Made by a program: the position numbers and the translations under genes. From NCBI GenBank assembly GCA_964481575.1, contig CAYZTR010000001.1, forward strand, positions 46,724 to 110,723: 64,000 nt of DNA. The letters are read 5' to 3'. The notes under the pieces were generated by a model. The model did no database searches, was not told the DNA's origin, and saw only the letters and a program-made list of their open reading frames with translations. Below are positions 31,949-33,748 of this stretch, piece by piece. This DNA comes from an uncultured Eubacteriales bacterium. GTDB lineage: Bacteria > Bacillota > Clostridia > Oscillospirales > Acutalibacteraceae. Each line of letters opens with the position of its first letter. The stretch's first letter is position 1.

Positions 31949-33748
31949 TTAATCGTCGTCCTTTTCCTGTTCTGAGAGGGGCAGCTGGTCAAAAGGAATC
32001 AAACAATTGTGTGTTTTTGCCAAGTCATTGCGCTGCTGCGCATAGCAGTACCCTTCTGAACGCATATACGCATTCCATCTGCGATGCTCTAATCTGCGTA
32101 TGGCCCATTTTTCCGCTTCGGTTCGCTGAGCAGCGGGCTTGTCCGCGCCGGGTATGCCGCATTTTTGCTTCATCTTATGATGGATGGCAGAAGCCATGGA
32201 GGATTTATAGTTGTATTCGTATTTCCAGAAATCCGCTTCCTGCCCCCATTTCAAATGACGCTGCAAAGCAGCCTGTTCTGCTTCTGAAGCCAAAATGACC
32301 TCTTCGGAATAGGCGGTTTTAATATCTCCGATGAACTCGATTTCATAGGGCTGCCCCTTAAAGTTGGTGATTCCCTGCAGTGCTTTCTTCTTGTCGGTAT
32401 GATATATCACAGTCTGTATTTGCGGCTTCACACCTGCGCGCTCAAACCGGGTGCGCAGTTTGATGGCTGCTTGGATGTTCTTTTCATCCTCTCCCAGCGC
32501 CACAAACACGTAGGTTGGTGTCGGCAAAGCGAAAACTGCATCGTCAAAAGCTTTTGTCCGCGCATCCATGCCGGAATGGATGAAAATTTGATAATTGGCT
32601 TCTCCGTCCGGATGAAAATTGCCGTTGTGCGTATCGTCCATCAATTCCGGGCAAAGGGAAGAAAAGGCCGATTCGGCTGTTTCGGAAGCATCAAAGGCGT
32701 TAATTTCCACCTGGTATCCGTCCATCTGACAAAACCATACCAGCGCTTTCAGCATTTCGGTTCCATGGCGCCCCAGCCCCACGATTACGGCGGAAATATG
32801 TTTGCGCCCATCTTCTGCCGGTATCGCGTGTTCAAAGATCTGGTGTCCCCCATCATAAAGGGTACGGAAAATCAGGGATTGCACCTCGTTGATTCGCCGC
32901 ACCTTCATTTGGATAGGGACGATACTGCCGGGATGCTCCGCCTCCTGGCGGACAGCATTGGCTAACAGGAGATCGGCTTCCACCTGGGTGGAAAAGACAT
33001 ATAAATGGGTGTGCGCCCGGTGCTGGTACTTTGCCAGCAGCGCGAAAGCCTGATTGACGTTTTCGGAGGGGTCTTCACCGATGGTAAAGAAGCGAATGGG
33101 GCAATTTTTGCTGTGAAAGGAAAAATTTACGGCAGCCATCTCTTTTTGAAAGCATATGGCGCCCAATTGCTGTGCATGTTTTGCCAAGTCACTGTGGGCT
33201 TCCTCACTTCTGGGCATATTTGCAAAAATGACAGCCCGGCCGGTGGCGTCCTTATCCATAAGACTTTCCGCCAAGGCCAGCGATTTTTCATTCAGGTCGG
33301 AAAAAATGAACACATCTTTCCGATAACTTGCAAGATATCTTCTGCGTGCAGATACATTTTTGAAAAAGGACAACACAAAGCCGAAGGTTAAAAGCGGCGC
33401 TGCTACAAACAAAATGGAAAACAAAAAAGAATAGGCATAAAAAATGCCGCCGGACAAACCTGCGATATTTTCCGTGATAAATCCGAAATCCACATTCACG
33501 AGAACCAGCTGTATCATGGTATAGACGGAGATGAACAACATCTCCAGGAAACCACAGTCGTTATATTTATAAGCGTTTATGCAGATCGGAATAAATAACA
33601 GCACCGAGGCCAATGCCATGCCGACAAACAATATTTTAGATGGATCGCAAAAGCGCCCCTTCCTTTTGGCTTTGCCCTTAGCCGCGGCAAACACAACGGC
33701 CAAAAACAGGCAAAGAACCGCACCTGTAAAATAAACTACCCAATGCAT
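31949..33748 (-). CDS. Multi-pass membrane protein with two Rossmann-like modules and a C-terminal RyR (ryanodine-receptor repeat) domain
   Basis: Four to five N-terminal hydrophobic helices. There is a GxGxxG-like motif (AVIVGLGRHGTEML). The C-terminus, RRLEHRRWNAYMRSEGYCYAQQRNDLAKTHNCLIPFDQLPLSEQEKDDD, fits the RyR repeat pattern (E/H.RW...+..GW.Y......K.HP.LVP+.ELP..EK..D). ATG 33748 follows GGGGAG-7 nt. Confidence 0.75.
   Translation of the reverse strand: MHWVVYFTGAVLCLFLAVVFAAAKGKAKRKGRFCDPSKILFVGMALASVLLFIPICINAYKYNDCGFLEMLFISVYTMIQLVLVNVDFGFITENIAGLSGGIFYAYSFLFSILFVAAPLLTFGFVLSFFKNVSARRRYLASYRKDVFIFSDLNEKSLALAESLMDKDATGRAVIFANMPRSEEAHSDLAKHAQQLGAICFQKEMAAVNFSFHSKNCPIRFFTIGEDPSENVNQAFALLAKYQHRAHTHLYVFSTQVEADLLLANAVRQEAEHPGSIVPIQMKVRRINEVQSLIFRTLYDGGHQIFEHAIPAEDGRKHISAVIVGLGRHGTEMLKALVWFCQMDGYQVEINAFDASETAESAFSSLCPELMDDTHNGNFHPDGEANYQIFIHSGMDARTKAFDDAVFALPTPTYVFVALGEDEKNIQAAIKLRTRFERAGVKPQIQTVIYHTDKKKALQGITNFKGQPYEIEFIGDIKTAYSEEVILASEAEQAALQRHLKWGQEADFWKYEYNYKSSMASAIHHKMKQKCGIPGADKPAAQRTEAEKWAIRRLEHRRWNAYMRSEGYCYAQQRNDLAKTHNCLIPFDQLPLSEQEKDDD

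Follow-up and report, generated by a model that had tools for sequence, protein, structure and literature searches.

What does a bacterial membrane protein that ends in a ryanodine receptor (RyR) repeat do in an operon with a TIR gene? The question is raised by a 64-kb stretch of DNA from an uncultured Eubacteriales bacterium (the window, 64,000 nucleotides (nt) in full; window positions are counted from its first letter), in which a minus-strand gene encodes a 599-amino-acid (aa) protein that we call RyR599, a name that we also use for its family. The original prediction, made from the letters of the window, proposed that this protein could be both the receptor of a nucleotide signal made by the TIR enzyme and a membrane-disrupting or ion-conducting effector. 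The open reading frame (ORF) at 31949..33748 on the minus strand, its length of 599 aa and the C-terminal sequence quoted for it were all exact matches. Our analysis confirms the observation and partly supports its interpretation. At the level of the family, RyR599 genes are recurrently followed by TIR genes, and the RyR module keeps the residues through which phage proteins contact cyclic ADP-ribose (cADPR) isomers; the TIR of the window itself belongs to a separate gene pair. We see an even chance that RyR599 both receives the signal and acts at the membrane as the effector in a TIR signalling system of the Thoeris kind.

Architecture of RyR599 and its putative ligand pocket

We built an AlphaFold2 (AF2) model of RyR599 on 22 homologues (pLDDT 85, pTM 0.77), and scored residue conservation over 79 homologues. 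The gene and the domains of its product lie in the window as follows:

31949..33748, minus strand: RyR599 gene, 599 aa, with transmembrane (TM), tandem RCK-like and RyR domains (ORF list, homologues, AF2 model)
33329..33748, minus strand: membrane domain, residues 1-140 (AF2 secondary structure)
32849..33316, minus strand: first Rossmann/RCK-like alpha/beta domain, residues 145-300, without the glycine-rich loop (AF2 pattern, Foldseek)
32309..32803, minus strand: second Rossmann/RCK-like domain, residues 316-480, with GxGxxG and D353 (conservation, weak TrkA_N match, Foldseek)
32111..32305, minus strand: helical segment, residues 482-546, with H498, W501 and H523 (conservation)
31952..32110, minus strand: RyR repeat of the Repeat12 type, residues 547-599 (Pfam RyR, profile against PDB, conservation)

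Taken singly, the window protein reaches 20.6 bits (E 5e-4) against the Pfam RyR family (PF02026) and so falls short of its gathering score, 27.4. Eight of 22 homologues matched the same family at E < 0.01 (best 4e-6), and one homologue has a precomputed PF02026 match. A profile built from the C-termini of the family and compared with PDB retrieved three structures of the “putative ryanodine receptor” from Bacteroides thetaiotaomicron, 4N05, 6UAG and 3NRT (E 6e-9 to 8e-9), Repeat12 of human RyR3 (3e-5), the 139-residue RyR-domain protein 35tm (9e-4), and RyR1 and RyR2 (about 1e-3). At this level the RyR-repeat-like C-terminus named in the original prediction appears unambiguous and more than a chance resemblance.

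According to the original prediction, no function had been assigned to the RyR repeat of bacteria. For phage members at least, this no longer holds: two 2026 preprints describe how they bind 2'cADPR and 3'cADPR. In the phage protein RyDEP, catalysis relies on the dyad H75/D117, with W78 stacked against the adenine and H100 holding the phosphates; other phage homologues of RyDEP bind the same signals with nanomolar affinity and do not cleave them (PMC13232231). A Pectobacterium phage encodes RyR Tad, which uses H129/W132, K147/H154 and K170/D171 to bind 3'cADPR, 2'cADPR and cADPR (10.64898/2026.06.04.730250). Counted from the first His, the ligand residues of the phage proteins are found at +3, +18, +25, +41 and +42, and the offsets in RyR599 are identical, in a comparison that uses the published residue numbers and a HMMER alignment to the B. 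thetaiotaomicron domain, not a direct alignment to RyDEP. The corresponding pocket residues of RyR599 are H555, W558 and D597 (each in 79/79 homologues), R573 (78/79, plus one Lys), H580 (78/79) and K596 (74/79), and H555 and D597 align with the RyDEP dyad H75/D117. By this alignment, the RyR module of RyR599 appears to keep all the 2'/3'cADPR-contact residues of the two phage RyR-domain proteins, and their conservation suggests that RyR599 may bind, and be activated by, a TIR-made signal.

In the helical segment that precedes the repeat (residues 482-546), H498, W501 and H523 are invariant and stand at RyR-like spacing (+3, +25). We do not claim a degenerate first RyR half-repeat at 486-546, since its hhalign comparison with 543-599 gave E 0.45 and a probability of 0.13.

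We also observed stand-alone RyR-domain ORFs of 92-100 aa in four of the loci collected (L094 372..650; L064 20034..20336; L065 8254..8556; L077 12832..13122). The first overlaps the start of a TIR-Sel1-TM gene (640..1779) on a contig from the human gut in which TIR and DUF4062-like genes abound. The other three terminate operons with the order RyR599, AAA+/FtsH-like gene, paralogous TM-RCK-RyR gene, the last being a distant paralogue of RyR599 with the same architecture. The stand-alone ORFs have the His, Trp, Arg and Asp, with a Thr at the position of the +25 His.

Upstream of the repeat, two dinucleotide-binding-like modules had been predicted. The AF2 model indeed shows two Rossmann-like folds, for which Foldseek gives candidate matches; the GxGxxG motif (G324, G326, G329) with D353 at the end of beta-2 is found in the second only. 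These four residues are nearly invariant (G324 and G329 in 79/79 homologues, G326 and D353 in 78/79). Of the two profile searches suggested at the outset, RyR was positive via the family profile, and Pfam TrkA_N gave a weak result (five of 22 family members, best E 0.0027). The nearest Foldseek matches to the whole model were tandem-RCK gating rings, of the Slo type (8hir and 7pxe) and of CASTOR (6o7a), with E 5e-4 to 5e-3 and a probability of 1.0, the TM-score being only 0.35-0.38.

The N-terminal membrane domain of four to five helices was borne out, with five helices in the AF2 model: TM1 (2-26), TM2 (36-59), two short helices (67-83 and 88-95) and TM3 (100-140). They are arranged as three TM helices plus a re-entrant hairpin, and the 40-residue helix 100-140 continues into the first Rossmann-like domain. 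The loop that joins TM1 and TM2 is strongly basic. In the model the two short helices form a re-entrant hairpin resembling that of pore-loop channels, predicted to lie on the outer face because of the positive-inside rule. Position 87, within the re-entrant segment, is acidic in 78/79 homologues. From this architecture we infer that RyR599 might act as a channel, conducting ions, or disrupt the membrane.

TIR genes and other neighbours of the RyR599 family

RyR599 belongs to a large family whose members share 45-60% identity over their full length and are nearly all unannotated. A word-indexed search returned more than 1262 homologues, the best 120 of those listed being essentially full length, and an exhaustive search at E <= 1e-3 returned 2662 clusters at 50% identity. 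The distribution across species is patchy: in a scan that used one genome per species, relatives were found in 303 of 185,579 representative species, all of them Clostridia metagenome-assembled genomes from gut or rumen. We analyzed 80 RyR599 loci out of these 303 species, and TIR neighbourhoods were counted over 81 loci, each from a different species. TIR genes were detected by searching the called ORFs with a hidden Markov model (HMM) built iteratively from the TIR domain of the window.

How often RyR-repeat proteins neighbour TIR genes had been left as a question by the original prediction, and the association proved to be recurrent. A TIR ORF was present within 10 kb in 38 of the 81 loci, and in 35 of the 64 whose downstream sequence extends for 3 kb or more. 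The gene immediately downstream of RyR599 (+1) was a TIR gene, on the same strand, in 26 of 75 cases (35%), often 5-60 nt from RyR599 or overlapping it, and the +2 gene in 7/71. Among genes more than four positions away, TIR accounted for 1/159 upstream and 4/223 downstream (about 1%). Within same-strand chains with gaps below 250 nt, 37 of 295 genes were TIR, vs 8 of 610 outside (Fisher p = 3e-12), the control being internal to the fetched loci and not genome-wide. Among the neighbours that remained, TIR once more ranked first as a family, and the TIR-bearing loci are scattered across the whole RyR599 tree.

The partner TIR proteins vary in their C-termini, which look like sensor modules, and are of several types: TIR with LRR_4 (about 650 aa), TIR with BspA-type LRR_5 (about 548 aa), TIR with HD (1000 aa), TIR with TPR, and others, with two or three TIR genes per locus in several loci. 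TIR-LRR proteins are the usual partners of the family. Of 47 TIR domains compared, at least 90% keep the catalytic-type Glu of NAD-cleaving TIRs, and the TIR of the window is one of them.

Other genes recur beside RyR599. A CitMHS-type permease (380 aa) occurs in 16 loci, 13 of which have the order RyR599, TIR-LRR_5, permease (among them L001, L003-L006 (L006 1294..5948), L008, L023, L029, L030, L032 and L037); it adjoins RyR599 without a TIR gene in L018, L020, L026 and L048. The permease may be a transport partner of the RCK-like ring. A CARF-PD(D/E)xK nuclease (PADLOC CARF4, 1e-30) lies directly upstream on the same strand in 10 loci (L007, L009, L014, L018, L028 (8537..9787), L035, L050, L051, L056 and L077) and is a second type of signal-activated effector in RyR599 islands. 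An IetA-like double AAA+/M41 protease and YbjN, TerB and PrsW proteins are also recurrent same-strand neighbours. Finally, an unannotated trio of genes (about 567, 737 and 1900 aa) is found upstream of RyR599 and co-directional with it in 13 loci (including L002, L012, L021-L023, L031-L034, L036, L038 and L049); the 737-aa product has a weak DUF2207_C match, and the 1900-aa product a weak match to a transglutaminase core.

The genomic context is thus partly defence-like, with the CARF nuclease, the IetA-like AAA+ protein and, beside one copy of the TIR-containing pair described below, Cas9 (locus L086). Beyond TIR, CARF and AAA+, the neighbourhoods do not show a strong signal of a “defence island”, since PADLOC matches among 91 further neighbours were singletons only (mad6, PD-T4-6, MkoA, PglW).

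The window operon and the competing explanations

In the window, three tightly packed minus-strand ORFs lie between 31949 and 35910, and their order in the direction of transcription is TIR, asparaginase-like, RyR599. The features upstream of RyR599 are:

33771..34769, minus strand: asparaginase-like gene, 332 aa (Pfam Asparaginase 1.4e-23; PDB alignment)
34774..35799, minus strand: TIR gene with a V4R-like domain, product of 341 aa from M38 of the mechanical ORF (Pfam TIR_2 7e-14)
about 35467..35796, minus strand: TIR domain of the TIR-V4R gene
35846..35874, minus strand: promoter-like site upstream of the TIR gene, a 10/12 match to the sigma-70 consensus (consensus match only)

The mechanical TIR ORF spans 378 aa; the real product, of 341 aa, is identical to database entry P0121. 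The TIR stop codon is separated from the asparaginase-like start by 4 nt, and the asparaginase-like stop from the RyR599 start by 22 nt, which include a GGGGAG Shine-Dalgarno sequence; neither junction contains a terminator-like site. The neighbouring genes, for a CadA-type ATPase and an ABC transporter, run in the opposite direction to the cluster, whose GC content is about 49%, vs about 55% in the flanks.

Homologues of the window TIR protein are about 335 aa long. Four Cys are conserved in their C-terminal domain, and in one source they go by the name “predicted hydrocarbon binding protein”, an annotation that we read as V4R-like. In all 17 loci with downstream sequence (the window; L082-L100), the gene directly after the TIR-V4R gene is asparaginase-like (about 330 aa). 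The PDB alignment shows that two motifs of active asparaginases, TGGTI and HGTDT, are intact in the N-domain of the asparaginase-like protein. No homologue of this gene was detected by tblastn in the 80 other RyR599 loci; we therefore rejected it as a component of the RyR599 family and assign it to the TIR-V4R pair. Because the pair is self-contained and its asparaginase-like gene is absent from the other RyR599 loci, the window operon is best seen as two modules joined. The coupling of the window TIR to the window RyR599 is therefore less certain, and the family-level link is unaffected. The TIR-RyR signalling link that had been predicted is accordingly supported for the family, through gene adjacency and pocket residues, and is weakened for the particular TIR on which it was first proposed. 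The TIR-V4R and asparaginase-like genes may constitute a TIR system in their own right, not yet described; no label for the pair was found in the covered parts of the 2025 Thoeris survey (10.64898/2025.12.03.692087).

The Thoeris-like system that we propose for the family would work as follows. On infection, the TIR sensor would convert NAD+ into an ADP-ribose-derived nucleotide, most simply a cADPR isomer. This nucleotide would bind the RyR pocket, and perhaps also the GxGxxG Rossmann site. The RCK-like ring would relay the signal either to the membrane domain or to a CitMHS-type permease acting as its partner, upon which an ion path would open, or membrane function would otherwise collapse, so that ion gradients dissipate and the infection is aborted. 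In the window, RyR599 would be co-transcribed behind the TIR-V4R and asparaginase-like pair, and the TIR of that pair may feed RyR599, which is the least certain step.

A number of observations weigh against this scheme. In the membrane part, RyR599 has no classical selectivity filter and no filter of the TVGYG type, and a model of the TM domain taken separately (residues 1-146) has no significant Foldseek match (best E 1.2). We rejected the domain as a recognisable channel pore, since this separate model is good (pLDDT 85) yet retrieves nothing significant; the non-significant matches include cyclic-nucleotide-gated (SthK), TRPM2 and NavAb channels, with a probability of at most 0.38 for SthK and TRPM2. 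The window protein also deviates from the family in the re-entrant segment (residues 68-95; window 33463..33547), with H76Y, R80Q, F82V and D85N replacing polar residues that are otherwise well or nearly conserved. All the motifs of its soluble domains are kept despite these changes, which may be a sign that the membrane part has diverged, or is less constrained, in this lineage. In the RyR module, the Pfam alignment is restricted to model positions 28-71 of 91, about half of the model: the protein terminates two residues past D597 (model position about 71), and the final helix of the phage and animal repeats is missing. The RyR599 ligand need not be made by a TIR enzyme, because Repeat12 of animal RyR also binds ATP and ADP (PMC13232231; 10.64898/2026.06.04.730250). 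In the gene neighbourhoods, a TIR within 10 kb is missing from 29 of the 64 well-covered loci (about 45%), and the TIR-V4R and asparaginase-like pair occurs mostly without RyR599. One full-length homologue lies on MT835673.1 (L081; 6081..22291) among housekeeping genes and with no TIR gene. This record is named “UNVERIFIED: Bacteriophage sp.”; we rejected a phage origin, as its content identifies a bacterial chromosomal fragment (MutY, HemN, inositol monophosphatase, M23 peptidase and a GyrB/ParE-type topoisomerase subunit with Pfam DNA_gyraseB and Toprim). Because of the TIR-less loci and of this housekeeping context, RyR599 might work without an adjacent TIR. Finally, neither PADLOC nor NCBIfam has a match to RyR599, which was accordingly rejected as a known defence family.

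The explanation that survives best alongside the Thoeris-like effector concerns the window, and we regard it as possible, with the balance somewhat against it: two unrelated modules would lie side by side, a complete TIR-V4R and asparaginase-like system and an orphan RyR599 whose TIR partner was lost or is elsewhere in the genome. The constancy of the pair, its usual separation from RyR599 and the absence of the asparaginase-like gene from other RyR599 loci all fit such an arrangement, as do the non-consensus residues in the membrane segment of the window protein and the gene content of the window, in which there is no TIR downstream of RyR599 and a single TIR ORF and a single RyR ORF in the whole 64 kb. 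The short spacer with its strong Shine-Dalgarno sequence and no terminator speaks against it, and so does a second independent case of the pair adjoining a RyR599 operon, in one other organism in which the pair is convergent with a RyR599, TIR-LRR operon. This explanation bears on the wiring of the window alone, and is compatible with a Thoeris-like role of the family.

The main rival to the Thoeris-like effector is a general regulator of channels or transporters, which would respond to adenine nucleotides (ATP, ADP or NAD(H)) through the Rossmann and RyR sites and would not be dedicated to immunity, the TIR genes being mere neighbours in accessory regions or exploiting a metabolic sensor. We consider this unlikely, and it does draw on several of the facts given above: the TIR-less loci, the housekeeping neighbours on MT835673.1, the recurrence of the permease beside RyR599 with or without a TIR gene, the size and full-length conservation of the family, and the ATP binding of animal Repeat12; RCK domains, moreover, classically gate transporters. 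It accounts poorly, however, for the specific placement of TIR at the +1 position, so often within a few tens of nucleotides or overlapping, and for the independent recruitment of unrelated TIR architectures across the RyR599 tree. The retention of every cADPR-contact residue and the patchy distribution among species also argue for the Thoeris-like effector.

An improbable third explanation, in which the RyR module is a membrane-anchored host sponge or glycosidase that buffers or ends TIR signalling against self-killing, could invoke two facts, that H555 and D597 align with the RyDEP dyad and that separate RyR ORFs of about 100 aa exist within the same operons as well as beside TIR genes, but it leaves the three-TM domain and the tandem RCK pair, some 550 conserved residues, superfluous, and the dyad is not diagnostic, as the non-catalytic sponge-type phage homologues retain the same residues (PMC13232231).

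Elsewhere in the window we made a few observations on other elements. Rfam identified a small bacterial signal recognition particle (SRP) RNA at 2525..2623 on the minus strand, inside a mechanical ORF of 665 aa, which because of this RNA is probably not a gene over that stretch. A T-box leader (Rfam) lies at 58172..58396 on the plus strand, upstream of the ORF 58364..59461. No tRNA genes were found within the 64 kb. About 800 nt at 28500..29300, between a methyltransferase-like gene and an ArsR/CadA cluster, are richer in AT (45% GC in the 2-kb bin) and have no convincing ORF.

Comparison with known systems

We class the RyR599 system as Thoeris-like, with a so far undescribed RyR/RCK membrane effector, the comparison with the type X effector ThsK being by description only. 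That the RyR repeat can serve as a pocket for TIR-made cyclic ADP-ribose signals was shown in 2026, for phage counter-defence proteins only. Both phage papers are concerned with RyR proteins of viruses and with the receptors of animals; they do not discuss effectors of the host (PMC13232231; 10.64898/2026.06.04.730250). No host protein with an RyR repeat as receptor has been described, and we found no prior description of a host RyR-domain effector in the literature searched on Thoeris and ryanodine. The RyR599 family would supply this missing host side. If so, it would represent a new effector class for Thoeris-type immunity, suggest a source for the phage RyR sponges, and offer a simple bacterial model for the debated direct action of cADPR-type molecules on RyR repeats; the cytosolic TIR-LRR proteins of gut Clostridia would be candidate pattern receptors. 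A bolder proposal, tentative and in our judgement rather doubtful, is that of a native bacterial pathway from cADPR through an RyR domain to a membrane channel: TIR-LRR pattern receptors would make a cyclic ADP-ribose isomer, the host Repeat12 pocket would gate an RCK-ring channel, phage RyR sponges and glycosidases would be captured copies, and the animal RyR repeat would descend from a prokaryotic immune-signal receptor.

The 2025 survey of Thoeris (Yirmiya et al. 2025, 10.64898/2025.12.03.692087) recognises eleven validated types (I-XI) and 29 predicted effector classes, with membrane effectors in types II, V, VI, VII and X. RyR599 loci resemble Thoeris in that a TIR gene with the catalytic-type Glu stands beside a gene that combines a nucleotide-binding module with a killing-type output, and in that there are often several TIR paralogues per locus. 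They differ in the long LRR, HD or V4R C-termini of the TIR proteins on the RyR599 side, and in the share of RyR599 genes, about 45%, that have no adjacent TIR. No type described in the survey has an RyR domain or a tandem RCK ring: the main text does not mention RyR, and no RyR, PF02026, TrkA, RCK, NAD or asparaginase label was found in those portions of the tables that were searched.

In type X, the partner of the TIR is an “ion channel” effector, ThsK, and the signal is not among the known molecules (10.64898/2025.12.03.692087). By description, ThsK and RyR599 are alike, as each is a predicted ion-channel effector paired with a TIR. Their TIR domains differ: those of type X (Table S1 of the survey) gave 14.6 bits or no match against the HMM of RyR-linked TIRs, vs 30-47 bits for the TIRs of type III, type V and those linked to 4TM-SLOG, among the entries compared.

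RyDEP and RyR Tad share with RyR599 the RyR module of the Repeat12 type and, at identical spacing, its ligand-contact residues; the two phage proteins bind 2'cADPR, 3'cADPR and cADPR (PMC13232231; 10.64898/2026.06.04.730250). The phage proteins are small soluble dimers that destroy or sequester the signal, whereas the RyR599 module is encoded by the host, shorter (with no helix past the Asp), and fused to RCK-like and membrane domains.

The RCK-gated channels (Slo, MthK, CASTOR/POLLUX) and the TrkA/KtrA rings have in common with RyR599 a membrane domain followed by two Rossmann-like RCK domains, and the GxGxxG...D pattern of RyR599 is as in nucleotide-binding TrkA_N. Unlike them, RyR599 has neither a TVGYG-type filter nor a glycine loop in the first RCK-like domain, and it carries the RyR module in addition.

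With respect to the animal ryanodine receptors, the homology is confined to the repeat, and size, topology and pore are unrelated; direct binding of cADPR to animal Repeat12 itself is not established (PMC13232231). What RyR599 and the animal receptors do share is an RyR repeat within a membrane protein, with NAD-derived cyclic nucleotides, the products of TIR or cyclase enzymes, as candidate ligands.

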